20,000 nucleotides of DNA, taken from the IMG/VR virus record IMGVR_UViG_3300023174_000066. One strand, written 5' to 3'. Origin of the DNA: an uncultured virus (IMG/VR IMGVR_UViG_3300023174_000066) (lineage: Duplodnaviria; Heunggongvirae; Uroviricota; Caudoviricetes). Both the position numbers and the translations under genes were made by a program. Below the pieces are notes generated by a model. The model was not told the origin of the DNA. It saw only the letters and a list, made by a program, of their open reading frames with translations, and searched no databases. Below, piece after piece: positions 2,873 through 19,383 of this stretch; within the stretch, counting starts at the first letter, position 1; each line of letters starts with the position of its first letter.

Positions 2873-2900
2873 AACTTTGAATGAACGTTCGTTGGAAGTT
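2873..2900. repeat. Inverted pair of the AACTTnnAACGAA motif (operator-like)
   Basis: AACTTTGAATGAA-CG-TTCGTTGGAAGTT, intergenic. Confidence 0.7.
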
Positions 2901-2934
2901 TTGCCGGATGCGGGATGGCGCTGCCGGTAAAATT

Positions 2935-3720
2935 TTAATCAACGCTCGTGAAAAGTTTTGATGTCTCGGCCAATTTCCTGAGCGTCCCTGGATTTGGGAT
3001 GCCCGACGCGCGATCTCCCTGGAAACCAAGGCTTCGTTCAAAGTTTGCGAAGGCGGACCTGGTCTTGTGATCAAACTCGCCGCGGGGGGCACCGCGAAGA
3101 CCAACCACTGCAGACAATGCCAGTTGTATAATAACAACACTGGGGTGCTTTAGACCTGGTCGGATGATGGAGCTGTGTACAACGGGGAGCTTTGTTTCCT
3201 TCGTTGAAAGTTTTAGATCTGAGCCGGCCGCGCTCAACTTTGGACGAGCGAATGCGAGCACTTCGTAAACGTAACGCGTCCGTCGGTAGACACCGTTCTT
3301 TGCTGAGCTACCCTTTGGCAGGCCAGGATCGGTTTGACCTTCGATGCACTGGAACATGCCGTGCTTCGTGAAATGTTCGACGTCCGTTACCAGGCCAACG
3401 TGTGGCTGGCCGAACGGGATGATGTTTGAATCTGATGACGGTTGAAAGAATACGATGTCACCAGGCCGGGGATTTTTGTAGATGAGGTTATCTGAGATGT
3501 AACGAGCAAGAATGCTAGCGGTTAAAACATGGGACGCGCATACCAGGCCTGCACGTTTGATGACGACGTCCAGGAAGGCACCTGCCCAGGGAATGCCTGG
3601 TTGGCCGACGGTCTGTGAAAACATATCCGCTTGTTGGAACGGGGCCGTGTATCCAATGTACTTTTCAGCTTCGGTTATTAAAAGTGCTGCCTGCTTACTG
3701 GCCCTACTGATTTTTATCAT
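2935..3720 (-). CDS. CHAP-like domain plus C-terminal peptidoglycan-binding (PG_binding_1-like) domain; catalytic Cys apparently replaced by Ala
   Basis: AEKYIGY...PWAGAF...PRPGDIVFF...HVGLV...IEGQT, then IRPGLKHPSVVIIQLAL...GEFDHKTRSAFANFERSLG...GIPNPGT. ATG 3720 has a GAGGAG SD. Confidence 0.75.
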   Translation of the reverse strand: MIKISRASKQAALLITEAEKYIGYTAPFQQADMFSQTVGQPGIPWAGAFLDVVIKRAGLVCASHVLTASILARYISDNLIYKNPRPGDIVFFQPSSDSNIIPFGQPHVGLVTDVEHFTKHGMFQCIEGQTDPGLPKGSSAKNGVYRRTRYVYEVLAFARPKLSAAGSDLKLSTKETKLPVVHSSIIRPGLKHPSVVIIQLALSAVVGLRGAPRGEFDHKTRSAFANFERSLGFQGDRASGIPNPGTLRKLAETSKLFTSVD

Positions 3721-3874
3721 ACAACTGCTCCTCAAGCATGTTGACTAGCTGGGCCGCTTCGTTGGCCCTTGCTGTCAATCTTACATGCTCGATTCGAGTT
3801 GTGGCAAGTTTTACGTCGTCAAGCATATGTCTTGCTAAAACTTTTGCGTACTCGAGTAGCGCTGGATTTGTCAT
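3704..3874 (-). CDS. Hypothetical protein (56 aa, MTNPALLEYAKVLARHMLDD...)
   Basis: Not in the ORF track. ATGA overlap with the upstream stop; fills the gap between two genes. Confidence 0.7.
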   Translation of the reverse strand: MTNPALLEYAKVLARHMLDDVKLATTRIEHVRLTARANEAAQLVNMLEEQLYDKNQ

Positions 3875-4866
3875 TCGTTCGTTGTTTCTTTCTCTTCGGT
3901 GCTGTTTGGAGTTTCCTGGATGACCTCGACGTCAATGATCTTTGAATCAGCTTCGTTCGAAGTTTTACCGGATGCGGCCGCTGCGGGCTCATCACCTGGA
4001 ATGTTTACACCAGCGTCGTGCAATCTTGCCGCTGCACTGGATGCATTGATCGCCAGTCGCTGTAGACGTTCGGCAATGACGGACGCTGCGGGACGGGCGT
4101 CCAGTGTGATGTTTGCATCAAGCTCGACTCCGCCGCGGACGCCAGCTCGATCGAGGATCTCCGTCGCAGCTTTGAGCTTTACGGGTTCGGACTCTGCTGT
4201 TTCCATCATTTGTTCGAGGACGTCGACGGCGTACGGGGCCGCCTGGGTTAACTTTGCACGAGCTCGTTCGATGTCATCTCCGGGCCTGTGTTTTAAGGAT
4301 CTTAGGTGAACGCGACAGAGACCGTCATCTGCTAGACGTCCGGAAGACCACAACATGCAACGAAGCCCATCATCTTTGACAGCAGTGCATCTTGTTGGAA
4401 AGACTAGCGGTTGACGTTTTCCAGATATAGCCACGCCGCTCTCTTGTTCTTTGAGCCAAGCGCGCGTCGCGCCAATGACCCAAGGGGGGACAAGGTAATC
4501 GGTTGCTTCTTCCGCGATTAAGTCCAGGCCGGTGAGATAGTCGGAGTTTTTATTATCAGGATTAGTAAGGATGGGTTTTTTCTCATTGAGAGAAATGATT
4601 CGTTTCTGGGTGGCCATCTCTTCTGAGACTGCCTGGATGAGACCGGTTGGGATTCCGTTCGTTGCATATACGGGTAACCAGTTTAAGTGTGCTCGACGTA
4701 GGATGGCACGGTTCTCATATGTATCCTCACACACGCCGCGGTCGGTTTCTTCAATGCCGATGGCGGATAAGTCTGGCCTGATGTTCGGCATTGTGTTGAT
4801 TTCAACAATGGGCTTATCCGGTTCGGGTGTATCGAACGGGTCTAGTTCCGTGCCGTCTTTTATCAT
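3871..4866 (-). CDS. Zn-finger (HGGxSTG-like) protein resembling an actinophage terminase small subunit
   Basis: CTAVKDDGLRC...GLCRVH followed by RARAKLTQAAPYAVDVLEQMMETAESEPVKLKAATEILDRAG, a helical pattern I associate with TerS-like proteins. Start is ATG 4866 or TTG 4881. Confidence 0.55.
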   Translation of the reverse strand: MIKDGTELDPFDTPEPDKPIVEINTMPNIRPDLSAIGIEETDRGVCEDTYENRAILRRAHLNWLPVYATNGIPTGLIQAVSEEMATQKRIISLNEKKPILTNPDNKNSDYLTGLDLIAEEATDYLVPPWVIGATRAWLKEQESGVAISGKRQPLVFPTRCTAVKDDGLRCMLWSSGRLADDGLCRVHLRSLKHRPGDDIERARAKLTQAAPYAVDVLEQMMETAESEPVKLKAATEILDRAGVRGGVELDANITLDARPAASVIAERLQRLAINASSAAARLHDAGVNIPGDEPAAAASGKTSNEADSKIIDVEVIQETPNSTEEKETTNE

Positions 4867-5077
4867 ATGACTTTTTACCAACGTTCGTTAAAAGTTAGGC
4901 CGACGGGATGAAACTTGGGGAGAGGCTGCTCATCCCGTCGGGGTTCGTTGCATCTTGCGTATTGCAGCGAAGGGCCTCTTCCCACGAACTTCGTTAAAAG
5001 TTCGATGAGAACATCTTCTCACGGTTCCAGAAAGTTTTTTTGGCGTACGGTGAGAGATAGCAGGTTTCCTGGTTTAG

Positions 5078-5133
5078 AAACAAAAACAAAAACCCCGTAA
5101 AATCAAGGTTTTTGATTTTACGAGGTCTTGTTT
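5078..5133 (-). terminator. Long hairpin with T-rich tail, probable terminator (possibly bidirectional)
   Basis: CGTAAAATCAA (5096-5106) pairs with TTGATTTTACG (5112-5122) and the stem can be extended; GTTTTTGTTTTTG follows on the - strand. Confidence 0.7.
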
Positions 5134-5153
5134 AGAAAGTGCTTTGGATTTAC

Positions 5154-5342
5154 CTACTTACAATCGCAATGACCGCAACCGCAATTTCCTGCCATTGGCA
5201 GTTTTGCCGTGACACTTGGGTGGTCTACGCTAACCCAACGGCCACTATCTAGACGTACTACTTTTTCTGCTTGTGTACGAGAATTTTTAGACGCGCTTCC
5301 TACGAGTAGGTTTCTTAGCCACAGTTTCAGTTTCAGGAACAT
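5154..5342 (-). CDS. Small hypothetical protein with Cys-rich C-terminus (CGCGHCDC)
   Basis: ORF track; fits the - strand operon. Confidence 0.55.
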   Translation of the reverse strand: MFLKLKLWLRNLLVGSASKNSRTQAEKVVRLDSGRWVSVDHPSVTAKLPMAGNCGCGHCDCK

Positions 5343-5481
5343 TTATATTTTCACCTGCTTCCTTTTTCTCGTATCCGACATTGCACTCACACTCACACAC
5401 AAACTTGTCAAACTCTCCGACACAGCCTAAGCAGTGGTCGCAATTTTTGTGATGTGAGGTACTGCACCACCCGCAAATCAT
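5287..5481 (-). CDS. Small Cys-rich protein with basic tail
   Basis: CGWC...HKNC...CECEC; ATGA overlap with the upstream gene. Confidence 0.7.
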   Translation of the reverse strand: MICGWCSTSHHKNCDHCLGCVGEFDKFVCECECNVGYEKKEAGENINVPETETVAKKPTRRKRV

Positions 5482-6194
5482 CGGATTGCGTATCGAGTTT
5501 CTTTGTGGTGGTAAACCTTGATTGTAGGGTCAAGCATAATTTTGTATCCTTTCTCTCGGGCATTCATACACCAAGAGTAATCTTCTCCTACATTGCACTC
5601 AAAGTCAAGTCCGTCCCATTGGATACCTTTGATTCGAAACCACGGGCGGTCACAATTCTCAAAGACTCCCTGCTTCATAGCAACGAATCCAAATCCCACG
5701 CCAAAGACTTCTTGAACTTCTTCATTCATAAAAAAGTCAATTTCATTCACCATCTTGGGTCGTCCACTCTCGTCAAAGAACGAAACTGCGACGGTTCCAT
5801 CTGGGGAGGTTTGATACAGACCGCTAATCACATCTTCTTTGGATTGATAAAGCCTGACGAAATCTTCGACGTCCCACTCGATATCGGAGTCAATCCAAAT
5901 AATTTTGTCGTAGGTGAACTTGCCAGCGCCAATCTCGTTGGTCTCCCAGTTGTTTTTGTATTCGTCAATGGCGGTCAGTTCTCGTGCGCTCGGCACAAAG
6001 GAGGATTGCTTTGATAAAAACTTGTAGTCAAGCCCTTCACTATTCAGCCACTTGGTTGTCTCAACAAGACTGTTCACGTACTCGGAATGCATCACCTTTC
6101 CAGGTGTTGCAATAACTACGTGGTAGTGGGGCTTACTCGAGGAACTCGTCGATTGTTGTGGTGCACTGTCCATATGATTTACATCTTTCTTCAT
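5478..6194 (-). CDS. Glycosyltransferase-like protein (GT-A fold)
   Basis: VVIATPG, WIDSD (DxD), VISGLY, GVGFGFVAM, VGEDYSWC, IMLDPTIKVYHHK. The start may be ATG 6173. Confidence 0.75.
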   Translation of the reverse strand: MKKDVNHMDSAPQQSTSSSSKPHYHVVIATPGKVMHSEYVNSLVETTKWLNSEGLDYKFLSKQSSFVPSARELTAIDEYKNNWETNEIGAGKFTYDKIIWIDSDIEWDVEDFVRLYQSKEDVISGLYQTSPDGTVAVSFFDESGRPKMVNEIDFFMNEEVQEVFGVGFGFVAMKQGVFENCDRPWFRIKGIQWDGLDFECNVGEDYSWCMNAREKGYKIMLDPTIKVYHHKETRYAIR

Positions 6195-6357
6195 TCAGGT
6201 CGCACGAACTACACACCTTGCCATCGCCATCGCAATATCGGCAGTTAGTCCATTCGTCATTGATTGCTTCGCCATCTTCTTCAGATAGCCAGCCGTACTT
6301 AGGCAACTCGCCGGTACCGTCACAATACTCGCAGTCGTATAAGTCTGGCTTACTCAT
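6133..6357 (-). CDS. DnaJ-type CxxCxGxG zinc-finger protein
   Basis: CEYCDGTG...CRYCDGDG...CSSC. Confidence 0.7.
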   Translation of the reverse strand: MSKPDLYDCEYCDGTGELPKYGWLSEEDGEAINDEWTNCRYCDGDGKVCSSCDLNEERCKSYGQCTTTIDEFLE

Positions 6358-6697
6358 CGTCCTCGTCCTCGTCCTCGTCGTCGAAGATAGCGTCTTTTCC
6401 GTCGCTCATCTCCATCCATGCTTTAATCAGACGGTTTACTTCTTTGATGGGCATGACAGAGATTTTGTCCCAGTCTTCATTGTTAATGAGGCACAGTTGG
6501 AGAATATCCATAAGCACTACCATTTTTTTATCACCAGGAGTGAGCATGAATTGTCGCATCTGCATCATTGGCATCTCTTGTAATGAAATAAGCCTTATGA
6601 CACCAATGCTGGTCTCAATCGCAACTTGGTCGATCTCGTTGTAGCTATCAGCGATCATCTTCTCTTGTCGCTTAGTTAGTATTTTTCTTGTTGCCAC
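6350..6697 (-). CDS. Hypothetical protein (115 aa) with acidic tail; weak resemblance to tail assembly chaperones
   Basis: GTG 6697 has a GAGG SD and directly follows the upstream stop. The longer track ORF would overlap another gene. Confidence 0.65.
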   Translation of the reverse strand: MATRKILTKRQEKMIADSYNEIDQVAIETSIGVIRLISLQEMPMMQMRQFMLTPGDKKMVVLMDILQLCLINNEDWDKISVMPIKEVNRLIKAWMEMSDGKDAIFDDEDEDEDDE

Positions 6698-6698
6698 T

Positions 6699-6923
6699 TT
6701 AATCCTCTTCTGGGTCGAAGTAGTCGTTAAGGTCTCTTTCCCAGCAGACCCCTTCGCCATCGCATGTAAGCACGTCATTAAGGCATTCCCCACATACTGT
6801 ACCTTCTCCTGCACAATTAGGACAGTCAATAGTGAAGTCACGCAAATGAACGTCCCAACTTGCGCCGTTGCCCTCGCAAACGGAGCAGGTGATAAGTCGT
6901 TCATATTTACCCTTGCTTGTCAT
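6699..6923 (-). CDS. DnaJ-type CxxCxGxG zinc-finger protein
   Basis: CSVCEGNG...CPNCAGEG...CGEC; ATG 6923 overlaps the upstream stop (TAATG). Confidence 0.7.
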   Translation of the reverse strand: MTSKGKYERLITCSVCEGNGASWDVHLRDFTIDCPNCAGEGTVCGECLNDVLTCDGEGVCWERDLNDYFDPEED

Positions 6924-7393
6924 TAGATACCTGTTCGACAGTCTTGGCACAGAAGAGCATTCAATCCTGTGTCTTGGTCATAAACTACAGTACCAGATTT
7001 TGTGATTACTGTCGGACTAATTGGTCCTTGTTTTCCACAGCGGTCACACTGTCGTGGAGCAATCCATTCAATCACATGTCCTCGTTCAATCGATGCAAGC
7101 ATTCCTCGAGAGAGAGCATGCTCTGGTCCAGGTCCCATCGTCTTTCGAATAAACAGTCTAACGTCTTCAACCTTAATTACAGGACGAATCTCTTTGCATC
7201 GACAATCAATGCGAGAGGGAGTGCAAGCAACAAATCCACCATCAAAACTTTCGTGGACCTTTACTGAGTGACCGCAGACACAAATTCTTTTGTCTCGATC
7301 AGACCTTCCGCTCTTACGAATTTTTTCGTCAGCGGTCTTGAGTTCCTCAATCGTAAAATCGAGAAATCCCATCGGGTTATTTTCTTGTTCCAT
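6923..7393 (-). CDS. Cys-rich hypothetical protein; leaderless
   Basis: CVCGH...C...CRC...CDRC...CQDC; TGA-TACACT-N6-ATG at 7393. Confidence 0.8.
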   Translation of the reverse strand: MEQENNPMGFLDFTIEELKTADEKIRKSGRSDRDKRICVCGHSVKVHESFDGGFVACTPSRIDCRCKEIRPVIKVEDVRLFIRKTMGPGPEHALSRGMLASIERGHVIEWIAPRQCDRCGKQGPISPTVITKSGTVVYDQDTGLNALLCQDCRTGI

Positions 7394-7408
7394 ACCCAAA
7401 GTGTATCA

Positions 7409-7660
7409 TAAACTTTCCTAATTATCCTAATTTTCTAATTGTCAATCGGTTTTTGGGCCCCCTATACACATACGTACACGCGTATAGAGAATTCAATTGA
7501 CATTTATAGTATTAGGATTTATCATTGCCCTACTATCCACTTCGAGCAAAAGTTTTTTCCAAAAACGGATAGTATTATTTATACCCCTCTGTTTTTTACT
7601 ATCCACTTCTGGTTTTACTTTTTCTTCAAAAGTGATAGTATTATTTTATCACCTAATCTG
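7409..7660. repeat. AT-rich divergent intergenic region with iteron-like repeats (candidate replication origin)
   Basis: TACTATCCACTTC at 7531 and 7597; GATAGTATTATTT at 7568 and 7634 (66-bp period); ATAGTATTA also at 7506; CTAATT three times at about 7418-7440. Confidence 0.6.
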
Positions 7661-7672
7661 AACAGGAGTAAA

Positions 7673-7912
7673 ATGTCATACATTATCCTTGGAATCACCT
7701 ACTTTTTTACTTCTTTATTATACATTTTATGGCCTGTTGCCCTCCTCGTAATGCTTACAAAAGTGTCCAAATTTAAGATTGCACTACCCATTACAATCGT
7801 CATTTCCGTCTCAGCTTTTCTTCTTGGACACCAAGCTTTCCTACTCGCAGGGGCAATAGTCTTCCTTATCAGCATTCTTTTTTATCTGATTGGCGACTAC
7901 GTAATCTGGTAA
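7673..7912 (+). CDS. Small multi-pass membrane protein (79 aa)
   Basis: AGGAG SD before ATG 7673; about three hydrophobic segments. Confidence 0.7.
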   Translation: MSYIILGITYFFTSLLYILWPVALLVMLTKVSKFKIALPITIVISVSAFLLGHQAFLLAGAIVFLISILFYLIGDYVIW

Positions 7913-7939
7913 ACTAGAGGTACACCAACCTAGAAAGTT

Positions 7940-9793
7940 ATGATGCTACGTCCCATTAGGGGCGAGGGAGAGCGTCCAACACATACAAAAAGACCACTGA
8001 TTTTAATCTCAGTGGCCTTTCTATTTTTTGCTAATCCGATTACGGCTGGCGCTTTATCTTTACCGACCGAGGCGAAGCTTCAGCCTCAGCCAACTCAGCT
8101 TCGTATTTCTTCGCAGCCTTACGGTTCAGTCTTGCAGCAAGTACTAGTCCTAGAAGGAAAAACCCCAGGACTCCTGCTGCAAACCCAACCCAGAACGAAT
8201 CAAGTTCAATCACAATCTGCATATTCAGACCTCCTATCTGAGCTCCAGTTTACACTACGTCACCTCGAAAATCTACTGTCAAACGCAAAAAACTCTGACC
8301 CCCTAAACCCAGACCCCGAACTTCTCTCCCAATACAAAGCAGAGATCAGGAGTCTGGAACTTAAGCTCCAGCAACTTCAAACGAACGTCGACGCAACTCA
8401 GCAAGCATACGAACAGCTATTCACGTCCACTCAACTTCTCGAAGAAGCAACAGCAAATAAGCAACAAGCGCAAGAAGCCTACGACGCTGCAACTATTAAC
8501 GAACAGAAAGCAAACCAAAGACTTGCACAGGCACATCAAGAACTTGACGCAGCAGTACAAGCTTACGAACAAGCCAACCAGAACTATCAACAAGCGCTAC
8601 AGGCTTATAACGAAAGCCAGATTCCAGACCCTAACCAAACTAACACACAACCAACACAACCAGGTCTGCAGGCAGACATCTATAACCAGATACAAACAGC
8701 AGGTACAAACATACCTCCACGTTCTACAACAGCCTATAACTTCTGTAAAACAGTCACGGTTACGCAAATCAACAACAACTGGGGTTCAGGCAACATCGAA
8801 GGTTGCGGAACTGACTACGTGATGATTCACTACACGGGATACCTCACTGTTCCCGAAGCAACTCCTTACGGTTATGACTTTCTCAGCATCTCCGACGACG
8901 GATGGTACTTTGAACTAGACGGACAAGTAGTAAACGATAACTGGTATCCAAAAGGTTGCGGAGGCAACTGGAGCCGGAAGTTTAACTTAACACCAGGACA
9001 ATCCTACCAAGTAGACGCATGGTGGTATGAGTGGAGCGGAGGAGCATGCTCAACGCTCTATTACGACAGTGGATACAACTGGGGACCAATCCCTGCTGCA
9101 TGGTTCTCACAGACTCCCTACACCCCCATTAGATACATCAACGACCCTGCTCTCTACCCAGCAGTCGTAAGGACAGAACAAGATTTTCAGAACGCGATCA
9201 CTAACAAGAACGCAAAGCAGACAGAGCTCACAACCAAAGAAGGCGAGTATGACCAAGCAGACCAGGCTCTCTTAAGATCCAGCCAACTTTTAACGAACGC
9301 AACTACAGCAGAGCACGATCTACAGCTGCAGCTAACTTTGAACGAACAACAATACACGTCTTCATACAGCGCTACAGCACAACTCGCAGCATCTATCTCC
9401 TTCATAACTATCAACGAGATTCTTACCACACCTGCGCCAGAAATCCCCGAACCCACGCCGGAACCATCTCCAACTCCGAACGAACCTCCGTTAGAAGTTA
9501 CGCCTGCTCCAGAACCTACACCAGAACCTACCCCAGAACCAGAAAACCTAGCAGTTGCAGCAGTTGCAGCAGTAGCCGAAGCGTTTGCTCAAGTTTCAGA
9601 AGCAATCGCAAACATTGGTTCAGATCTATCACCAGAGGTCCGTGAAAAGGCTCAAAAGGTAGTTATTTCAGCAATTGTTGTCACCCAAATTGCAACTCAA
9701 GCCGCCCAAATCGCAACCCAAGCAGCCGCCGCTTCAGCCTCTGCAGCAGCTGCATCAGCAAGTTCTAACTCAGGACCAGGAAGGAGGAAATAG
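7940..9793 (+). CDS. Exported coiled-coil protein with a PA14-like domain, Pro/Glu/Thr linker and Ala-rich C-terminal segment
   Basis: N-terminal signal-like segment; Q/A/E coiled coil; PGLQADIY...INNNWGSG...IHYTGYLTVP...SDDGWYFELDGQVVNDNW...WWYEWSGGA (PA14 pattern); PEPTPEP repeats. Promoter TGGTAAACT at 7907-7915. Confidence 0.8.
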   Translation: MMLRPIRGEGERPTHTKRPLILISVAFLFFANPITAGALSLPTEAKLQPQPTQLRISSQPYGSVLQQVLVLEGKTPGLLLQTQPRTNQVQSQSAYSDLLSELQFTLRHLENLLSNAKNSDPLNPDPELLSQYKAEIRSLELKLQQLQTNVDATQQAYEQLFTSTQLLEEATANKQQAQEAYDAATINEQKANQRLAQAHQELDAAVQAYEQANQNYQQALQAYNESQIPDPNQTNTQPTQPGLQADIYNQIQTAGTNIPPRSTTAYNFCKTVTVTQINNNWGSGNIEGCGTDYVMIHYTGYLTVPEATPYGYDFLSISDDGWYFELDGQVVNDNWYPKGCGGNWSRKFNLTPGQSYQVDAWWYEWSGGACSTLYYDSGYNWGPIPAAWFSQTPYTPIRYINDPALYPAVVRTEQDFQNAITNKNAKQTELTTKEGEYDQADQALLRSSQLLTNATTAEHDLQLQLTLNEQQYTSSYSATAQLAASISFITINEILTTPAPEIPEPTPEPSPTPNEPPLEVTPAPEPTPEPTPEPENLAVAAVAAVAEAFAQVSEAIANIGSDLSPEVREKAQKVVISAIVVTQIATQAAQIATQAAAASASAAAASASSNSGPGRRK

Positions 9794-9796
9794 CAC

Positions 9797-9982
9797 ATGA
9801 AAGACTTTTTTAACGACCTTATCTCACAGGCGTGGACTCTTCTTGGAATGTTCGTTGCATACGTCGTTCTCGAGGGCTCAGCCAAAGAAGTAATCGGTTG
9901 GTGCATTATCGGCACATTAGGTCTCTGGGTAGTCACATATCCACTTCGTAAGCCGTCTAACTCAAATCAAGATGACGAGTAA
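9797..9982 (+). CDS. Small 2-TM membrane protein (holin-like position)
   Basis: AGGAGG SD; two hydrophobic helices; lies directly before an M23 peptidase. Confidence 0.7.
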   Translation: MKDFFNDLISQAWTLLGMFVAYVVLEGSAKEVIGWCIIGTLGLWVVTYPLRKPSNSNQDDE

Positions 9983-10028
9983 CCGGTAAAATTAATAGTA
10001 AGCCTCAAACAAACAAAGGATTAAAAAC

Positions 10029-10679
10029 ATGGCATCAGACTCAAAAGCACAATATGCAATTGATGGGAATCCAGGTAAGAAGTGGAAAGTAACTTCATAC
10101 ATGGGTTGGCGTATTCACCCCGTCTACAAAGACAAGCGCCACCACAACGGAACTGACATTTGGTCTTCACAAGAGCCTTGCTGGATTGAAGCACCTTACG
10201 CAGGAAAGGTTGTCGCAATTGGCAACAACCCTGCTGGGTTTGGAAACAGCGTAACCCTCATGCACAAGATCAAGGGAAAGTGGTACACCACGCTATATGC
10301 TCACATGGCAGATGGCTCAATTAAGGTCAAAAAGGGACAGAAAATCGACGCTGGTACTCCTCTTGGAAAGATGGGCTCAACGGGTACATCAACCGGTAAG
10401 CACCTACACTGGGAACTCCACAAAGGAAAACAGCACCTATGGAACGCCACTGGCGTTGGCTACATTGAGCCTGTCAAGTTCTTTAAGCACCTCATTGAGT
10501 GGGAGAAGTCAATTGCTACTGCTGAAGTAGCAGCTCTACCCGAAGATCCAGTAATCCCAACTCCAACTCACGATGAGGCTGGGTCAGAGGCTGCAGAAGC
10601 AAGTCAAAATGCTATTGCTTCAGCACCAGCTCCAGTAGTCCCTGCAGTAGCCCCAAAGGCACCAGCAAGAAAAAGATAA
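10029..10679 (+). CDS. M23 family metallopeptidase (endolysin-like)
   Basis: HNGTD (HxxxD), YTTLYAHM, GSTGTSTGKHLHWE (HxH); AAAGGA SD. Confidence 0.9.
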   Translation: MASDSKAQYAIDGNPGKKWKVTSYMGWRIHPVYKDKRHHNGTDIWSSQEPCWIEAPYAGKVVAIGNNPAGFGNSVTLMHKIKGKWYTTLYAHMADGSIKVKKGQKIDAGTPLGKMGSTGTSTGKHLHWELHKGKQHLWNATGVGYIEPVKFFKHLIEWEKSIATAEVAALPEDPVIPTPTHDEAGSEAAEASQNAIASAPAPVVPAVAPKAPARKR

Positions 10680-10740
10680 AGACTTATCGGAATAAAGGTG
10701 CATCTGTTATACACAGCACGTAATAAACAATAGCCGATAG

Positions 10741-10778
10741 AGAAGGCCCCCCACCACAAGGTAGGGGGGTTCTTCTTT
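10741..10778. terminator. Terminator between convergent genes
   Basis: AGAAGGCCCCCCACC-ACAA-GGTAGGGGGGTTCTTCTTTT hairpin. Confidence 0.75.
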
Positions 10779-11278
10779 TAGTAGGAGCGACCCTTACCAA
10801 CCTCGCGCAACATACCTAGAGACCTAAACCCCGCTAATTTATCGTGCACGGTCCTAACTGGCATCGAAAACAGCACAGAAAGCACTACAGCAGGGTTTTT
10901 TACTCTAAATTGAGTTATAAAGTTGTAAAAAAGGATCATTTTATCCTCTTCCAACAGGTTAACTGACTCCCAATGGTGGTGGATATGGTCCATCAAGAGA
11001 GAAATACGCTTCTCAGGGCTCGGAAATGCGTGAATATTGGCATTTCCACCGAAAGATTGCTCTAAAAAGTCGAAAACAGGGTCTCGTAAGTACTCTAGTC
11101 TCTTACTGACATCACCTTGTGTGAACCCATATACAGGGAACTCTAGGTGCCCAATTATCAGTAAGTCGTCGCCGTACTTACCAGAGACCCACCATTCGCT
11201 CGAAAAACCGCCATTTTCCGCCTCAAAAAGCTCGACGGTTGCATATAAATTAAGTCTCTCAAAAGTGATGAGAGCCAT
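10778..11278 (-). CDS. Hypothetical protein with C-terminal HTH-like segment
   Basis: PAVVLSVLFSMPVRTVHDKLAGFRSLGML resembles a (winged) helix-turn-helix. Confidence 0.6.
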   Translation of the reverse strand: MALITFERLNLYATVELFEAENGGFSSEWWVSGKYGDDLLIIGHLEFPVYGFTQGDVSKRLEYLRDPVFDFLEQSFGGNANIHAFPSPEKRISLLMDHIHHHWESVNLLEEDKMILFYNFITQFRVKNPAVVLSVLFSMPVRTVHDKLAGFRSLGMLREVGKGRSY

Positions 11279-11281
11279 AAT

Positions 11282-11884
11282 TTACTTCTTTTTCTTCTCA
11301 GTTTTAATAAATACGAGGCGCGAGATCTCTTCAGAGGCAGCAAGAACAGCAATTGGAGCCGAAGCAGTGATAGCAACACCAATCCAAAGACGATAATCAC
11401 CATTTCCAACGCCGATTGTGCTCAAATAGTCAAGAGTATGTGCAACGTTAGCTGCAATTGACACTCCTGCAAAGATAAAGAGCCAGAAAATAGTCCTAAA
11501 TGTCCCTTCGCCACGTGCTGTAAACACAAAAAGTGCGATCGTGTAGGCCAAAATAGCGGCGTCTATGAACAACGCAGGGACCCATTGCAGGAATACAGGG
11601 AGTCCTGTGTACTGGGAAATGTCCCAAATACCGGCAAAAGACACGACAAAGGACGAAAGCATGAGGATAAACACCAAAATCAGTGCAATCCACAGCGTTC
11701 CACGAGAGTCGGGGTTAATACGCTGAGCGTTAGAAGAGGTTGATTCGACTACAGGTGTAGATACGGACACTTCGTTTTGTTCTTCTTGAATATCCATGTC
11801 TAACTCCTGCTCATTCTCAATCCAATCATCATCTATGATTTTTGCAAAGCCCCCTCGGGGGGCAAAAGGTTGGTTAGTATTCAT
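11282..11884 (-). CDS. DUF2637-like 4-TM membrane protein; leaderless
   Basis: SFVVSFAGIWDI...WVPALFIDAAIL...GVSIAANVAH...ASAPIAVLAASE; TGA-TACACT-N6-ATG. Confidence 0.75.
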   Translation of the reverse strand: MNTNQPFAPRGGFAKIIDDDWIENEQELDMDIQEEQNEVSVSTPVVESTSSNAQRINPDSRGTLWIALILVFILMLSSFVVSFAGIWDISQYTGLPVFLQWVPALFIDAAILAYTIALFVFTARGEGTFRTIFWLFIFAGVSIAANVAHTLDYLSTIGVGNGDYRLWIGVAITASAPIAVLAASEEISRLVFIKTEKKKK

Positions 11885-12057: not shown

Positions 12058-12062
12058 GTATT

Positions 12063-14494: not shown

Positions 14495-15001
14495 TTATCT
14501 GTCTTTTTCTACTCTTAAGTAGTAAGTAGGTCTACCATTTCCATAATTTCTACCACGATATGAAGAAGTAAGCGCATGGCAGTTTGGACATAGAACTTCT
14601 AAATTTTCTTTTGAGTGATTGGTACCATCACCATCAATATGATTTATTTCAAGAATAGAGTTCCCATCATCTGGATGCTTCTTCCCAAAACCACATTTTG
14701 AACACAAATAGTTAGACTCTTTTAGTAGAAAGTTTCTAACAGAGTTTGACAGTTTTCTTTTAGACCCACCAGACCACTCTCCATTTATCCAAAGCTGTAC
14801 TTTACCAAAAGCAACATCAGATCCACGTCTATCCCAGCAACTTTTGCAGTATGTTCTTGTAGAAGATATTAAAGATGAACATCTTCGACAATGACCCTCA
14901 ACACAACGCTTTGGATAAGCTTTATTATTATATTTTGCGGAGCAAGACTTAGAGCAAAACTTTGGATTTTTTGTTTCGAAACCACATGTTAAACAACTCA
15001 T
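14495..15001 (-). CDS. HNH endonuclease with N-terminal zinc fingers; leaderless
   Basis: CSKC...LEINHIDGDGTNHSKENLEVLCPNCHALT; noticeably AT-rich; TGG-TAATAT-N6-ATG. Confidence 0.9.
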   Translation of the reverse strand: MSCLTCGFETKNPKFCSKSCSAKYNNKAYPKRCVEGHCRRCSSLISSTRTYCKSCWDRRGSDVAFGKVQLWINGEWSGGSKRKLSNSVRNFLLKESNYLCSKCGFGKKHPDDGNSILEINHIDGDGTNHSKENLEVLCPNCHALTSSYRGRNYGNGRPTYYLRVEKDR

Positions 15002-15139: not shown

Positions 15140-15502
15140 TTAAATGCCTTGAGACTTTTGGATCTCTTTAGCAATGTCGTCTAAAGTAAAAGAGCCTCTG
15201 TGCTTGTAGAAGTTAATAATCGCAACAGCCCTATCTCTTTCATTTTTAATGATTTTGTTTCTTTCTTGAAGCGCTTGCATCTGCTTAAAAGCAGCCTTCT
15301 CTTGCGCCCTAAGATACTTTCGTTGCCTGTCATAGTGCGTCTGACAAAGACCGGATGCTCTAACACCAGCAGTGCAGTCTTCTACCTCACACGGTTGCGC
15401 CAACCTTTCGGCTTTTACTGCAGCTCGATAGTGTGTTATACACATTCCTCGCGTAAGAAAGTTTTGCTCTCCACACACGGAGCAGGTTCCAGATTTTCTC
15501 AT
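15140..15502 (-). CDS. Double C3H zinc-finger protein with C-terminal ERxR-type helix
   Basis: CSVC...GMCITHY and CEVEDC...GLCQTHY; AAAGGAG SD. Confidence 0.8.
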   Translation of the reverse strand: MRKSGTCSVCGEQNFLTRGMCITHYRAAVKAERLAQPCEVEDCTAGVRASGLCQTHYDRQRKYLRAQEKAAFKQMQALQERNKIIKNERDRAVAIINFYKHRGSFTLDDIAKEIQKSQGI

Positions 15503-15514
15503 TCTTTATCTCCT

Positions 15515-16576
15515 TTAGTTAGAGTACATTTTTAATACTGCCAGCGGGTCTACCAAAACACCATTCATTTTAATTGCAAGGTGCAGGTGCGGTCCGCTAG
15601 TTCTTCCAGTGTCTCCAACTTTTCCAATTGTCTGATCGATTTCAATCTTATCTCCAACAGATACTGCCACAGAGCCACCAATCATATGAGCGTAGATTAC
15701 TTCCATCCCATGACCAGCGTCTATGGAAACATAATACCCCAAGTCGTAATCGTAGTCAACTTTAGTAACAGTTCCAGCAATGATAGAAGGAATCTTTGTC
15801 CCAGAAGGAACAGTAAAGTCTACCCCCTGATGGTAGGAAGAACACCCCGAACAGGGAGGAGTTCTGTACCCATACCTATCATTAATAGTTGAAGGCTTAA
15901 ATGGGTAGCGCATTATGGGCATATAAAAGCCTGAATCTGGGTCTGGAAGATCACTAGCTACAATATTTTCCGCAGTGAAAGACTGTACTTTTTCTATGCT
16001 ACTAGCAAAGTTAGCACACGGAGCAGTCCCAGCATGCGCCGGAGAGCTAGCTAAAATCACAGTTGAAGCCACCGCCACTACCGCGTACTTCTTTGACTTA
16101 CTTACCGCCTCCTTGCTCCAATGCTGAAAAAGCCCCAGACCTTTAGCCAACTTACTCGGCCCAGGGACTTGCTCTTCAGATAGAACAATCTCTGTTACTG
16201 GAGCCGGATCTGTCTCCACTACGTCCAAAGCTTTAGGCTTCCTGCGGAAAATCCCGTAAATCTCGTCTTTGAAATCCTCAACAAGCTTTGTCACAATGTG
16301 ATCATCAGGGAAGCTGACAAACGCTTTATCGATAATCTCAACAACCCTGTTACGCTCAAAACGAGCAACTTCGTGGTGATTACCAATCCCCTCTGCATAC
16401 TCAAGACACTCTGCTTGATACTGCATGAGACCTCGCTCGTTACCCACGACGCGGATGTAGTTGTCTTTACTACGCTTAAGAACGTAGGCAACTCGGTTTC
16501 TCTGAGAGATACCCGAATCCAACTTCCACCTCTTTCGGAGGCTTTCAAGTTGAGTCTTCTGTGCATTACTTATCAT
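15515..16576 (-). CDS. M23 peptidase with N-terminal extension and internal signal-like segment
   Basis: HQGVD, IYAHM, GDTGRTSGPHLH. Confidence 0.85.
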   Translation of the reverse strand: MISNAQKTQLESLRKRWKLDSGISQRNRVAYVLKRSKDNYIRVVGNERGLMQYQAECLEYAEGIGNHHEVARFERNRVVEIIDKAFVSFPDDHIVTKLVEDFKDEIYGIFRRKPKALDVVETDPAPVTEIVLSEEQVPGPSKLAKGLGLFQHWSKEAVSKSKKYAVVAVASTVILASSPAHAGTAPCANFASSIEKVQSFTAENIVASDLPDPDSGFYMPIMRYPFKPSTINDRYGYRTPPCSGCSSYHQGVDFTVPSGTKIPSIIAGTVTKVDYDYDLGYYVSIDAGHGMEVIYAHMIGGSVAVSVGDKIEIDQTIGKVGDTGRTSGPHLHLAIKMNGVLVDPLAVLKMYSN

Positions 16577-16826
16577 CTAGTTTTCCCCTCTCGATAAGTG
16601 CAATAGCATTCTCTATGACCCAAACAGTTTTAGTGCCTGCTTTGGTCCCCGTGGATGAGGCGGTGTCGCTCATTTTGTTTAATATTGCAATAATGCGTTC
16701 ACGCTCTTTACGAATCCCCTTGTCAACGCCATCTTCTTTGGCGCTCCTAGCAATAGCACCAACCGTCCCCTCCAAGAGTTCACGGCTGTGCTCTGAAACG
16801 ATGCGATTGTAGTTTCCTTTACTCAA
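16566..16826 (-). CDS. ERERII-family small protein
   Basis: KERERIIAIL...AIALIERG. Confidence 0.75.
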   Translation of the reverse strand: MSKGNYNRIVSEHSRELLEGTVGAIARSAKEDGVDKGIRKERERIIAILNKMSDTASSTGTKAGTKTVWVIENAIALIERGKLDDK

Positions 16827-17002
16827 GAGTTTTCTCCCTTGATAAGAGCAATAATGTCAGAGACGTCTGAAAACGCGTAATGCCATTCATCTTTGGCTTC
16901 GATTAGTGCAATGATTCGCTCGCGCTCACGCCGTCTCGCGTGGCTGGCAACTTTACGTTCGCGCTTGTTGCGTGGCTGACGCAAATAGTCAACGAGTGTC
17001 AT
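16823..17002 (-). CDS. ERERII-family small protein (59 aa)
   Basis: TAATG overlap at 17002; RERERIIALI...IIALIKGENS. Confidence 0.75.
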   Translation of the reverse strand: MTLVDYLRQPRNKRERKVASHARRRERERIIALIEAKDEWHYAFSDVSDIIALIKGENS

Positions 17003-17223
17003 TAGTTCTCTCCCTTGATAAGAGCAATAGCCTCGCACATCAGGCAATCGTAATGAATACCTGAAAGATGACTAGTGTTATGCCAATACTCGTGGTTGAG
17101 TAGTTCGATGATGCGTTCACGCTCTTTATTGCGAACATATTCAGCATATGCGTTAATTTCGTCTACATCTTCTTCAGAGAATGCGCTGTTCAGTACCAGC
17201 ATGTTGTGCTCAAACTTAATCAA
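17002..17223 (-). CDS. ERERII-family small protein
   Basis: KERERIIELL...AIALIKGEN. Confidence 0.75.
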   Translation of the reverse strand: MIKFEHNMLVLNSAFSEEDVDEINAYAEYVRNKERERIIELLNHEYWHNTSHLSGIHYDCLMCEAIALIKGEN

Positions 17224-17407
17224 TTTTATCTCCCTTGATTAGCCTATAAATCTGACCGCAGACTCCCATGTCAAAGAATAAATAATTATCCTTGAGTAGT
17301 GCAAGTATGCGCTCGCGCTCGCGCTTAGTAGCAGCTTCTTCAGCCTCTTTGATTAGCCCCTGAACTGCGTGGAGCTCTTGCTTCATTACTTCTTCCCAGT
17401 CATTCAC
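17216..17407 (-). CDS. ERERII-family small protein
   Basis: AGGAGG SD; RERERILALL...LIKGDK. Confidence 0.75.
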   Translation of the reverse strand: MNDWEEVMKQELHAVQGLIKEAEEAATKRERERILALLKDNYLFFDMGVCGQIYRLIKGDKID

Positions 17408-17549
17408 CGGTTTTCCTCCTAGGTTTGTTAATCAAGTATCGAATAATTTCATCAGCCACAGCATACAGAATAACCAGACCAATCAAAATAAAAACAGCAA
17501 GTACCCCATACCCAAACAGCATAAGAGCAGTGTAGATAAATAGTATCAT
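17400..17549 (-). CDS. Small single-TM protein (49 aa)
   Basis: Not in the ORF track; MILFIYTALMLFGYGVLAVFILIGLVILYAVADE...; ATGA overlap. Confidence 0.65.
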   Translation of the reverse strand: MILFIYTALMLFGYGVLAVFILIGLVILYAVADEIIRYLINKPRRKTGE

Positions 17550-17713
17550 TTCGTTTGCTCCTTGATAAGCCAAATAACTTTGCCGAGTGTCAGGGTTCTT
17601 CCGTACTCGTCGTCATACATCTTTTCCAGCAACGCAAGTATTCGTCCACGCTCTTGCTCTGCACCTGTACGTATGTCTTTCTGGCGAAGGGGAGACATTT
17701 TTTTCTCGCTCAT
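17546..17713 (-). CDS. ERERII-family small protein (55 aa)
   Basis: Not in the ORF track; GAEQERGRILALLEK...VIWLIKEQTK; ATGA overlaps. Confidence 0.7.
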   Translation of the reverse strand: MSEKKMSPLRQKDIRTGAEQERGRILALLEKMYDDEYGRTLTLGKVIWLIKEQTK

Positions 17714-17907
17714 GTGGCCTCTTCCTCGATAAGCGCGATGAGTTGGTTGTGATCCATCACTTCAGCGTACTCAGAGTCACGCAACTTGTCAAGTAGTGCA
17801 ATGATTCGTTTGCGCTCTGCGCTACGCCCAAGTTCAAATTGAACTCGACCATGAGCCTTGAGTTCGAGGTCGAAGACTTCTTCCTCGGTAAATATGCGCC
17901 GGATCAT
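17710..17907 (-). CDS. ERERII-family small protein
   Basis: GRSAERKRIIALLDK...LIALIEEE. Confidence 0.75.
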   Translation of the reverse strand: MIRRIFTEEEVFDLELKAHGRVQFELGRSAERKRIIALLDKLRDSEYAEVMDHNQLIALIEEEAT

Positions 17908-18107
17908 CCGTCGTATCCGTAAGAGTAGTCTGTTTCAGACTTAGTGTAGTCACAGGAATTGCATGTGGTGATGATATCTGCTTCATAGCGACCCGTCATT
18001 TCTACCCACTCGGTGCAGTAGGTCAATTTCTCACAGCTGGGGCATTCCCACTCCGAGTCCTCAAACATTCCTTCGTCGGGCGGGTCAATTGGTGCTTCAA
18101 TTCCCAT
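17904..18107 (-). CDS. Small acidic zinc-ribbon protein
   Basis: CPSC...CNSC; AAGGAG SD. Confidence 0.75.
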   Translation of the reverse strand: MGIEAPIDPPDEGMFEDSEWECPSCEKLTYCTEWVEMTGRYEADIITTCNSCDYTKSETDYSYGYDG

Positions 18108-18153
18108 TAGCTTCTGTCTCCTTGTTAGTGGTAGCTTTTGCTACACCACCACA

Positions 18154-18387
18154 TTACTGCTCTCTGAGCATTTTGTCAAGGTCACGCATCAAACTTTTCA
18201 TACGAATTTCTACGTATTGATCTTCTAGATCCTGAAGCCTCTTTTTTAAATCACTATCCCGACGCTCAAGATCTTCTAGACGTCGACGCAAAGCATTTAG
18301 CCTTGCAATATTGTCAGGAGTCCAAGCGTTGTTGGGCTTAGGCTCACCCATTTGATTCTCGTTGTCATCTCTAAAGCTATTGTTCAT
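18154..18387 (-). CDS. Small coiled-coil protein
   Basis: RLNALRRRLEDLERRDSDLKKRLQDLE; probable start ATG 18387. Confidence 0.65.
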   Translation of the reverse strand: MNNSFRDDNENQMGEPKPNNAWTPDNIARLNALRRRLEDLERRDSDLKKRLQDLEDQYVEIRMKSLMRDLDKMLREQ

Positions 18388-18580
18388 CTTTGGCCCACTT
18401 ATCATAAAGATTGACAAGGCCATACATAGTAACTAAGTAAAAGACAATTGAAACAGACCCAACAGAAACAACTACTACCCAGTTATTCAAAGTAGTATCT
18501 CTCACAAATGCAGAAATCGACGCAACTACAACTAGCAAGGCTAGAGCCACGTGCAACACAAACAGAAGTATTTTAATCAA
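18377..18580 (-). CDS. Small 2-TM membrane protein
   Basis: Two hydrophobic segments; GAAAGGA SD before TTG. Confidence 0.7.
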   Translation of the reverse strand: MIKILLFVLHVALALLVVVASISAFVRDTTLNNWVVVVSVGSVSIVFYLVTMYGLVNLYDKWAKDEQ

Positions 18581-18743
18581 CTATCTTAGGTCCTTTCTTT
18601 GAAGGGAGTTTAATTTTCTCAACTTGTCTTTTGTCTTTCCCTTTAATCAGTTTGACAGAAAACCCATTGCCCATACTTACCACAGCTTCCATACGTTCTG
18701 GATCTTTGTCGAAGTCGTGGATTTCCTTACTGACGTCGACCAT
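18573..18743 (-). CDS. Hypothetical protein (56 aa, MVDVSKEIHDFDKDPERMEAVVSMGNGFSVKLIKG...)
   Basis: Not in the ORF track; TAATG overlap; fills the gap. Confidence 0.65.
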   Translation of the reverse strand: MVDVSKEIHDFDKDPERMEAVVSMGNGFSVKLIKGKDKRQVEKIKLPSKKGPKIVD

Positions 18744-18910
18744 TAGTAATTCCTGTTCTCAATCTTGCTGATAATAGCGTCGTATAGTTCTACAACTGCA
18801 GGGTCATTCTGATTCGACCTGTCGTAGCGCAGCGACTCCACGAGAACACGTCTCTCGTTATCTGCTCCACGAACCATGCCTTGCATGTAGGCATTCTCGT
18901 AATCATTCAC
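18743..18910 (-). CDS. ERERII-related small protein
   Basis: YMQGMVRGADNERRVLVESL; probable GTG start at 18910. Confidence 0.65.
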   Translation of the reverse strand: MNDYENAYMQGMVRGADNERRVLVESLRYDRSNQNDPAVVELYDAIISKIENRNY

Positions 18911-19061
18911 CTTCAACCACTCCGTCAATTCTAATAATCAGCTCTACAGCCTCAGCAGACAAATTTTTGTCCCAGTTCTCTAAAATCTTGTTAACCCCGT
19001 CACGAATACGGTTCCGCTCGTCTTGAATACCTCGAAAGTATCCACTAATCTGTTCGTCCAT
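18903..19061 (-). CDS. ERERII-related small protein (52 aa)
   Basis: Not in the ORF track; MDEQISGYFRGIQDERNRIRDGVNKILE... Confidence 0.65.
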   Translation of the reverse strand: MDEQISGYFRGIQDERNRIRDGVNKILENWDKNLSAEAVELIIRIDGVVEGE

Positions 19062-19062
19062 C

Positions 19063-19311
19063 TCATCCATTGTCGGACTCCTTTTCTACTTCGTAGTCTA
19101 GGTCGATGCTATCAATAGCTTTCTGAAGGACGTCGACGGGGTTGACCTCGGCAGACTTAGGGTCTTCTAGGTATTCTCTCTGAAGGCTATATAGAATGTC
19201 TGCAATGCGCTCACGCTCTCGGAGCTCTCCTTCGTGCAGGACAATACCAATAATCATCTCTTGGCTGTCTGTCATGTTTTCCAGAGTAAGCGTCCTATAC
19301 TTCTTGGTCAT
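19063..19311 (-). CDS. ERERII-family small protein; leaderless first gene of the operon
   Basis: GELRERERIADIL; TGG-TAAAGT-N6-ATG. Confidence 0.8.
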   Translation of the reverse strand: MTKKYRTLTLENMTDSQEMIIGIVLHEGELRERERIADILYSLQREYLEDPKSAEVNPVDVLQKAIDSIDLDYEVEKESDNG

Positions 19312-19356
19312 ACCTCTACTTTACCACGAGATAGCCTAAAACTAGCCGGTAACTGC

Positions 19357-19383
19357 AACATTGAACGAACTTCGTTCAAAGTT
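19357..19383. repeat. Inverted pair of the AACTTnnAACGAA motif (operator-like palindrome)
   Basis: AACATTGAACGAA-C-TTCGTTCAAAGTT, upstream of the 19311 promoter. Confidence 0.7.

Follow-up and report, generated by a model that had tools for sequence, protein, structure and literature searches.

A stretch of 20,000 nucleotides from an uncultured virus (IMG/VR record IMGVR_UViG_3300023174_000066; hereafter, the window) carries ten exact copies of a polar 13-bp word, AACTTnnAACGAA, which reads AACTT-Y-N-AACGAA and comprises 11 fixed letters, one Y, and one N. The copies are oriented with transcription, overlap promoters, and, in whole genomes of relatives, are confined to one block. Comparison with relatives shows that the word is maintained by strong purifying selection at the level of DNA. 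We tentatively propose that the word could well constitute the operator and roadblock sites of a sequence-specific phage repressor, working in the manner of the stoperators of Cluster A mycobacteriophages.

The window derives from a large tailed phage of freshwater actinobacteria, probably a lytic one. Megablast of the window against 50,697 phage records gave no match. A search with the 331-aa small-terminase-like (TerS-like) protein encoded in the window yielded 61 related loci in IMG/VR; relatives are designated here by G or L numbers. The nearest, G001 (66.6 kb, IMG/VR), has 87.6% DNA identity across 18,007 aligned window positions; complete relatives are 129–136 kb in length, and word-bearing phages have a G+C content of 42–47%. 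The TerS-like protein shares 60% identity with one encoded by Actinomycetia phage DSL-LC01 and 34–39% with the product of gene 1 of Microbacterium phages (186–195 kb), one record of which labels the gene 1 homologue 'terminase small subunit'.

Occurrence, conservation and orientation of the word

A preliminary description of the window listed ten exact copies of the word and six copies with one mismatch (starts at 2873, 4352, 8491, 9472, 9487, and 19357), and all are present. The expected number of exact copies is 0.04, and none of 200 dinucleotide shuffles gave ten or more; when one mismatch is tolerated, there are 17 matches vs. 0.67 expected, a seventh one-mismatch copy, at 1276 on the minus strand, having been missing from the earlier list. 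The 1276 copy is probably not a true site, because it is the −35 region of an early promoter, and the 4352 copy, on the plus strand, is probably fortuitous, its complement encoding the invariant TerS-like Zn-ribbon peptide DDG(L/I)RCMLW. As a separate observation on early promoters of this lineage (window 1276–1288; G001 15911, 18299, and 21928), the −35 context matches 10 of the 11 fixed letters; AACTT, the first half of the word, also precedes TTGAC in early promoters of G002.

Six of the exact copies are intragenic. The preliminary description held that these occupy all three reading frames and always read in the coding direction, and we find exactly this: frames 0, 1, and 2 are all used, and six of six copies are on the sense strand. 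Against a codon-preserving background, in which 1000 synonymous shuffles gave a mean of 0.174 sense copies, a maximum of 2, and no antisense copy, the window has 6 sense copies. The three head-to-head pairs claimed earlier (2873–2900, 9472–9499, and 19357–19383) are likewise real, with spacers of 2, 2, and 1 nt that differ in sequence (CG, CC, and C), but the two degenerate pairs (about 4869–4896 and 4976–5002) are weaker. Across 82 non-redundant sites from the window and word-bearing relatives, information ends at 13 bp and no flanking letters are conserved; position 6 is a pyrimidine (C or T), and T seldom follows the word directly. Interpretation of the word as a promoter element was rejected, as the same 82 sites show no conserved −10 element at the right distance.

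Comparison of the window with G001 shows that the word is conserved beyond its surroundings. At the ten sites, 110 of 110 fixed letters are the same in the two sequences, vs. 701 of 800 letters in the flanks, and 18 of 20 N letters are also the same; by simple arithmetic, the probability of 110 of 110 at 87.6% identity is about 5 in 10 million. The endolysin gene provides a view over a longer evolutionary distance. The word is present at the orthologous place in seven of seven word-bearing lineages and in 0 of 20 other relatives. In all seven word-bearing rows the peptide is A-N-F-Q/E-R, spelled AAC TTY SAA CGA, with a next codon that starts with A; in the 20 other rows it is A-[R/H/S/K]-[Y/W/F]-Q-R, with CGT, CGC, CGG, or CGA as the Arg codon and any letter next. 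The changed residue and the fixed codons in seven of seven word-bearing rows indicate that the word has been paid for with a residue of the endolysin and has frozen its codons. Copies in the TerS-like gene lie in short insertions in the C-terminal tail (..TSNE..), and in G002 also in the N-terminal tail, and these tail insertions occur only in word-bearing lineages; the remaining intragenic copies occupy a linker between domains, Q-rich coiled coils, and a Pro/Thr linker. Such linkers and coiled coils are parts in which a protein can accommodate the word. We conclude that, as judged from the sequences, the word is under strong purifying selection as DNA.

The preliminary description called the word dispersed. 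This holds within the window, but not in whole relatives, in which a single block of about 10 kb contains the word. In G002 (complete, 135,096 bp), 18 of 18 exact copies fall in a 10.4-kb segment that spans the arbitrary contig junction; at up to one mismatch there are 34 copies, vs. 4 for the reversed control, most of them in the same three 5-kb bins. The corresponding figures for exact copies are 15 of 15 within 8.7 kb in G003, 12 of 12 within 12.4 kb in G004, 7 of 10 in the block in G005, and 4 of 5 in the block in G006, so that these five relatives carry 5 to 18 exact copies each, with 0–1 in controls; G001 has 13 exact copies, 10 of them within 6.5 kb, with 0 for the reversed-pattern control. 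The composition of the block is constant: the TerS-like gene, a small gene, and the endolysin gene with the spacer after it on one side, and the gene for a large secreted coiled-coil protein opposite. Transcription of the two sides is divergent, and the word likewise points outward. In the window and in G001–G004, two opposed clusters flank a 3-kb center.

Outside this clade the exact word is nearly absent, with 0 copies in DSL-LC01, 0 in G007, 0 in G008 (complete), and 1 in G009 (complete); in G007, copies with up to one mismatch number 2, vs. 9 for the control. The first 12 kb of Microbacterium phage Zooman contain no AACTT-type word. Variant words are found in related phages. The first half, AACTTC, is kept in L031, with nine words of AACTT...AATAA type, and in L022, with six of ACTTC.CATTA type, and L048 has short AACTTTTT-type palindromes (AACTT-type). 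Relatives with 64–70% identical TerS-like proteins differ in word. A second half that changes across related phages is as expected of a co-evolving pair of protein and site.

A degenerate inverted partner follows 28 of the 82 sites at a distance of 4–16 nt, vs. 10 of 82 for an upstream control window, and pairs with exact or near-exact halves have spacers of 1, 2, 2, and 4 nt, the 4-nt case being in L021. Most places have only one strong half. RNA-stem covariation is not observed in the pairs, as the free letters of paired halves are complementary in only 12 of 28 and 3 of 28 cases, and the partner half-sites keep the consensus on the non-transcribed strand. The lack of pairing between free letters, together with the variable spacers, argues for independent protein half-sites on double-stranded DNA and not for an RNA stem.

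In the window and relatives, counts based on automatic gene calls, in which the close pairs window/G001 and G002/G003 do not represent independent events, give 51 sense vs. 5 antisense copies for open reading frames (ORFs) of at least 150 aa, with 3 of the 5 antisense copies being second halves of pairs. For ORFs of all sizes the same counts are 58 sense vs. 15 antisense; the extra antisense cases fall in small ORFs that are probably spurious, the real genes there running the opposite way. Inside the block, the direction of transcription and the direction away from the center coincide. The two directions are separated by stray sites in G005: the site at 8348 opposes its block side but has, on its own strand, a TATAAT 20 nt ahead of it and an ATG 8 nt beyond it, and the site at 34251 follows a local small ORF. 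Because these strays follow local transcription, transcription is a better correlate of orientation than is cluster geometry.

Early promoters of sigma-70 type are conserved in this phage group. One of them, with an inverted repeat around TGTTATAAT, occurs 11 times in DSL-LC01, which also carries a fixed ribosome-site context in 10 copies; in G001 and G002, AACTTGAC(A/T) forms arrays in which a TAnnnT box lies 17–18 nt downstream. Intergenic copies of the word lie inside or just downstream of sigma-70-type promoters, and in relatives the word is also found at promoters 10–36 kb from the cluster. The copy at G002:3521 directly follows TTGACA and fills the promoter spacer, the copy at G005:87683 ends 8 nt before TATAAT, and the copy at G001:14496 lies between a −10-like box and a ribosome-binding site. 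Among the promoter sites, no copy is seen in an activator position, upstream of −35. Sites on or just after promoters, with none upstream of −35, are in the positions of repressor sites.

Proposed operators and roadblocks, and alternative explanations

According to the hypothesis that the word serves as operator and roadblock, each word would be a half-site, bound by one protein domain or monomer. Protein bound at a word in or just after a promoter core would block initiation, as at an operator; this step would cover the pair behind TGTTATAAT at 19357–19383 and the two spacer sites that precede the TerS-like gene. Protein bound at single, sense-oriented, intragenic copies would act on elongating RNA polymerase in one direction, halting it or slowing it down. 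The block of about 10 kb (with the TerS-like gene, a 56-aa gene, the endolysin gene, and the gene for a 617-aa surface protein) and a few distant, early-type promoters would in this way be silenced together at some stage of infection.

The preliminary description took the word to be the binding site of a phage protein acting as a repressor or roadblock, as a TerS packaging-recognition factor, or as a polar replication or partition factor, and named two candidate binders, the TerS-like protein and a helix-turn-helix (HTH)-like protein. The part of this proposal that concerns the sites stands: they are selected, at the level of DNA, and of a type expected for protein binding. Among the functions, repressor or roadblock fits best, because sites overlap promoter cores or follow them closely, because orientation with transcription holds far from the cluster, and because paired half-sites show no covariation of RNA type; packaging recognition and replication or partition are weakened by the stray sites at distant promoters. 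Neither of the named binders withstands comparison with relatives, as set out below.

Several observations weigh against the operator and roadblock hypothesis. Most copies lie well within genes, in an array that covers about 10 kb, whereas a published account of Cluster A (PMC9283540) places stoperators in short intergenic spaces genome-wide. Codon usage alone favors the sense orientation 2.8 to 1, so that part of the orientation bias is explicable without a polar mechanism. Ten sites lie within 1.7 kb of one gene in G002, seemingly more than a roadblock needs. No match to a repressor-type DNA-binding family was found among the 133 window ORFs of at least 45 aa, in searches with no model specific for gp71, the Cluster A repressor of phage L5. 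The HTH_17 proteins encoded beside the TerS-like gene in relatives have no counterpart in the window or G001, and the word is tracked neither by their recognition helices nor by a small XRE-like protein.

Candidate readers of the word were assessed by whether they vary with it. The TerS-like protein has 66 invariant columns over 29 sequences, which include sequences from phages with the word, with a variant, or with none, and the invariant columns include the Zn-ribbon and the terminase-like helices; being equally conserved without the word, the protein cannot by itself set specificity, and, on this alignment, it is probably not the reader. The 166-aa protein encoded at 10778–11278 does end in an HTH-like stretch, as described earlier, but fits poorly as a binder: it has a homologue in only two of five other word-bearing records and is missing from G005, which is 94% complete; homologues also occur in two word-less relatives; and the putative recognition stretch stays unchanged when the word differs. 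Many relatives encode an HTH_17 protein, either single or in tandem, directly before the TerS-like gene, and its place is taken in the window and G001 by a terminator and a 220-bp spacer; this absence, and helices that do not track the word, count against it. Also disfavored are the XRE-like early protein, of 94 aa, for the reason given above; a Zn-rich 156-aa protein (6923–7393), present in all relatives with no word-tracking change by eye; and an acidic protein of 77–87 aa without DNA-binding features. The acidic protein occurs in the window and, besides its source L021, in three of six word-bearing loci (one of the three negative loci, L029, does not cover the place) vs. 0 of 15 others.

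The best lead on the reader, a weak one drawn from protein alignments, is a small serine recombinase of resolvase/invertase type, 218 aa long in G002, whose gene belongs to the core set of these phages and has orthologues in G001 and others. Its last helix is of one type, QNG-x-x-WY-x-[TS]-TVKN, in five of five word-bearing records with an orthologue (G001, G002, G004, G005, and G014), and L048, with its AACTT-type palindromes, shares this helix. In six of seven word-less records the helix is different; in G012 it differs at 73% identity, the same identity as for word-bearing G014. This comparison, made by eye on 12 orthologues and L048, is confounded with ancestry: the exception, G007, has the same helix and 0 exact words, and so the link may just follow descent.

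This lead raises an alternative that we consider unlikely, namely that the word is a half-site for a small serine recombinase, that pairs are dimer sites of res/hix type, and that the arrays serve recombination or recombinase-bound architecture near the genome end. The res and hix sites of Tn3 and gamma-delta resolvase, Hin, and Gin consist of inverted 12–13-bp half-sites with a short spacer of varying length, and res site I and hix have an inverted build of 27–30 bp. The pairs described here resemble them, with inverted 13-bp half-sites, spacers of 1–4 nt, and 27–30 bp in all, a build that the three window pairs share. Tn3 resolvase also represses genes flanking res, and repression here could be a by-product of this kind. 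The resemblance does not extend to the arrays as a whole, in which single half-sites, scattered over kilobases in genes, far outnumber pairs. The spacers of the window pairs differ, precluding crossover with one another, and no joint at any site was observed in contigs of four DNA runs, in the assembly of which rare forms are dropped. All sequencing runs listed as containing the sequence are of DNA, and none is of RNA. The recombinase gene is, moreover, not in the window. A related, and less probable, possibility is that the C-terminal HTH of the recombinase reads the word and that the mirror-image arrays load the enzyme over the 10 kb flanking the genome end, where it would form a polar barrier or an architectural domain that serves end processing or shields the packaging and lysis genes; we know of no described counterpart in phages of a recombinase as a polar organizer of a DNA domain.

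It is also rather improbable that the word marks sites for packaging or genome-end processing, read by the TerS-like or an HTH_17 protein near the boundary of a long terminal repeat. The cluster does surround the TerS-like gene, and profile comparison relates the helical core of the TerS-like protein weakly to the small terminases of NV1 and PaP3 (E = 2.7e-4 and 0.032, respectively); its AlphaFold model is mediocre (predicted local distance difference test score, 65.8), and a Foldseek search with this model gave nothing at E ≤ 0.001, with the NV1 small terminase at rank 8 (E = 1.9). In Zooman, which has a linear genome, the homologue is gene 1, with its start at base 63; small genes and an endolysin gene come next, an order that is the same as that of the window read on the minus strand. 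Zooman genes 7–27, at the left end, recur about 175.65 kb further as genes 320–340, and the gene 1 homologue has two match places in each Microbacterium phage record; on this gene spacing, as distinct from sequence comparison, we infer a terminal repeat of about 17 kb in Zooman.

Within the window, G+C content falls from about 51% to 44% at about 5000, where GC skew changes sign, and many relatives' contigs end within 0.5–3 kb of the TerS-like gene. Contig depth is 1.6–1.9-fold higher on the TerS side in three of the four runs (X1, 84 vs. about 52; X2, 25.6 vs. about 13.5; X4, 11.2 vs. about 6), with almost no step in X3; X1 may be the sample from which the window came. These observations provide a lead to a terminal-repeat boundary near 5–6 kb of the window; the change in G+C content and depth may instead mark a module junction. 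The depth steps disagree among runs (5915 in X1, and 2831 and 3907 elsewhere), which may reflect mixed strains, and the contigs show no starts or ends at any site. The GC-skew curves of two complete relatives have no extreme at the cluster.

The placement of the word also differs from that of known packaging sites. The R sites of lambda cosB, pacL and pacR of SPP1, and pac of P22 lie within a few hundred base pairs of the cut. The likeness to such small-terminase sites is that short sites are repeated in and beside a small-terminase gene; the differences are that sites here span at least 6.6 kb (2873–9499, plus 19357–19383), sit also at promoters 10–36 kb away, and go with a TerS-like protein that is equally conserved whatever the word. 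The true large terminase gene is 24 kb away in G002.

Recognition of the sites by a host factor, such as a regulator or nucleoid protein of the actinobacterial host, with differences in word reflecting differences in host, would account for the failure to find a convincing phage-encoded reader and is compatible with the narrow G+C range of word-bearing phages, which would suit one host group. We nevertheless regard it as quite improbable, since the word differs even between relatives with 64–70% identical TerS-like proteins, quick for a host switch, and since the perfect paired form of the word has 0 matches in the genomes of 185,579 species, a weak test confined to the paired form.

Still more doubtful is that the word acts in RNA, as an mRNA target of an RNA-binding protein, a nuclease, or a small RNA. 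Sense orientation would then come free, and all single intragenic copies are on the sense strand; several copies are in 5' leaders, 7–17 nt before start codons, and the second half, AACGAA, resembles a stretch that related phages conserve immediately 5' of their ribosome-binding sites. The behavior of the paired halves, which keep the consensus on the antisense strand with unpaired variable letters, speaks against this, as does the copy at G002:3521, which, in a promoter spacer, is upstream of any transcript start. Equally remote is a polar barrier or guide for a DNA motor (fork, translocase, or exonuclease) at the genome end, in the manner of Tus-Ter, KOPS, or Chi, for which the opposed clusters around a 3-kb center at a compositional boundary might be cited: the outward direction in the clusters is also the direction of transcription, so that mirror geometry is no evidence by itself, the G005 strays follow transcription and not cluster geometry, and promoter-overlapping positions would be meaningless for such a motor.

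Features of the window and other observations

Table 1. Sites of the word and associated features in the window (coordinates are window positions; a period denotes features on both strands)
Feature	Position	Strand	Remarks
One-mismatch look-alike	1276..1288	-	-35 region of early promoter (TTGACA, 17 nt, TAGATT)
One-mismatch half-site	2873..2885	+	Letter 10 C to T; kept in G001
Exact site	2888..2900	-	Head-to-head with 2873-2885, 2-nt spacer; pair position 35 nt downstream of endolysin stop; kept in G001
Endolysin-like gene	2935..3720	-	CHAP-like and PG_binding_1; two sites
Exact site	3033..3045	-	Endolysin gene, peptidoglycan-binding domain; frame 0; peptide ANFER
Exact site	3200..3212	-	Linker of two endolysin domains; frame 1; full pair there in L021
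TerS-like gene	3871..4866	-	331 aa; Zn-ribbon and terminase-like helices; carries sites
Exact site	3952..3964	-	Variable C-terminal tail of TerS-like gene; frame 2; peptide TSNE; within insertion seen only in word-bearing lineages
Exact site	4884..4896	-	17 nt upstream of TerS-like start codon
Exact site	4990..5002	-	In 220-bp spacer after terminator 5089-5129; weak extended -10-like TGTTCTCAT 2 nt upstream
Intrinsic terminator	5089..5129	-	Closes upstream operon; marks start of TerS-like/lysis unit
617-aa secreted coiled-coil/PA14-like gene	7940..9793	+	Three exact and three one-mismatch sites
Exact site	8373..8385	+	Q-rich coiled coil of 617-aa gene; frame 1
One-mismatch site	8491..8503	+	617-aa gene, sense strand
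Exact site	9285..9297	+	617-aa gene; frame 1
Exact site	9334..9346	+	617-aa gene; frame 2
Head-to-head pair	9472..9499	.	Two one-mismatch halves, 2-nt spacer; Pro/Thr linker of 617-aa gene
Head-to-head pair	19357..19383	.	Exact half (-), one-mismatch half (+), 1-nt spacer; starts 1 nt after extended -10; 46 nt upstream of ATG at 19311; operator position
Extended -10 TGTTATAAT	19384..19392	-	Early-type promoter; preceded by terminator 19434-19453

The window encodes, in addition to the proteins discussed above, an AAA/CobS-like ATPase, ThyX, a dUTPase, a glycosyltransferase, two HNH endonucleases, two M23 peptidases, and a denV-like glycosylase; the endolysin combines CHAP with PG_binding_1. 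The two HNH genes (14495–15001 and 15140–15502), which lie between the dUTPase gene and an M23 peptidase gene, look like a mobile insertion: the first is without a counterpart in G001, and the second has only a 38% match there. A divergent promoter region at 7497–7675 contains a promoter, TTGACA-17-TATCAT, and two tandem 50-bp repeats (7531–7580 and 7597–7646), each of which is an inverted repeat with DnaA-box-like arms TACTATCCAC and GGATAGTA; these repeats may be a second operator system or an origin.

Downstream of the promoter at 19384, the one predicted to be operator-controlled, the minus strand carries an array of a dozen or so small genes of 55–90 aa (16566–19311), at least seven of which share a conserved segment of 22–40 nt (repeat families D1, D2, and D6); the array is a paralogous family. 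After the site pair at 2873–2900 comes a very acidic ORF of 45 codons with Glu/Val/Ala repeats (2625–2761). The X2 and X4 contigs diverge within it, leaving loose ends at 2705 and 2738, which indicates that the length of the ORF is strain-variable.

Other repeated words occur in relatives. In Zooman (L080), between gene units at 2954–11513, a box consisting of CTTTAGTG, 5 nt, and ACTCTTGCGTG is present in six copies, five on the plus strand and one on the minus strand, upstream of promoters, and TAAGCTGTAG is present in five copies as a −10-like element. L077 has tandem CTAATGTAGACTAA arrays on both strands (6608–6866), L034 has seven copies of AAAAAGTGGATAC, and L075 has 12 copies of TTACACGGAAAAA at promoters. 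In L024 (13683–19518), ten small early genes in succession each have AACGACGAA 10–20 nt ahead of the start codon, a pattern that resembles the start-associated sequences of Cluster K mycobacteriophages. Finally, L112 (JBDNFI010000028.1, 106 kb) and L113 are filed under a Cyclobacteriaceae metagenome-assembled genome and a Nitrosomirales metagenome-assembled genome, respectively, and encode ribonucleotide reductases 74% and 60% identical to the enzyme of phage G002; both are probably phage contigs binned with the wrong organism.

Significance and comparison with known systems

At the level of titles and abstracts, we found no description in the literature of the word or of the site arrays of this phage group. 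If the operator and roadblock hypothesis is correct, directional silencing by site arrays, known from one temperate mycobacteriophage group, would extend to large, probably lytic phages whose hosts are the abundant freshwater actinobacteria. A regulatory word would, in these phages, have been forced far into coding sequence, with a conserved arginine replaced, codons frozen, and short tail insertions acquired, and the changing second half across relatives would offer a natural series for a new protein-DNA recognition code. That the marked block comprises the TerS-like gene, the endolysin gene, and a surface-protein gene is a hint that a switch may time the lysis and packaging genes, which lie at the genome start. 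Cultured Microbacterium phages share the gene order; the word was not found in the first 12 kb of one of them, Zooman.

The closest likeness is to the operators and stoperators of Cluster A (L5 gp71 and the TipsytheTRex repressor). The published account (PMC9283540) describes Cluster A stoperators as asymmetric 13-mers that occur both at promoters and inside transcription units, are aligned with transcription, and lose their activity on reversal. The word shares with these sites, as there described, its asymmetric 13-bp form, its many copies, its location at promoters and within transcription units, its orientation with transcription, and the occurrence of changed words in related phages. The differences, according to the same account, lie in layout and setting: Cluster A has more than 20 sites over a 50-kb genome, and the word has 10–18 copies in about 10 kb of about 130 kb; Cluster A sites are in short intergenic spaces, and 6 of 10 copies here are in coding sequence, with effects on codon choice, residue changes, and insertions; inverted pairs occur here, in a phage that is large and probably lytic; and the Cluster A repressor is monomeric, with an HTH and a 'stoperator' domain, whereas no gp71-type repressor was seen in the window, in searches that used no specific model. 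The relationship to the Cluster A family is one of likeness; we do not claim membership, because the sites are local, mostly intragenic, and sometimes paired, and because no such repressor was seen.

A second likeness is to KorB of plasmid RK2, which has 12 operator sites at promoters, near them, and far inside genes, and which illustrates that the sites of one regulator can be both at and far from promoters. KorB sites are palindromic, non-polar, and spread over the whole replicon, in contrast to the word described here, which is polar and confined to one block.

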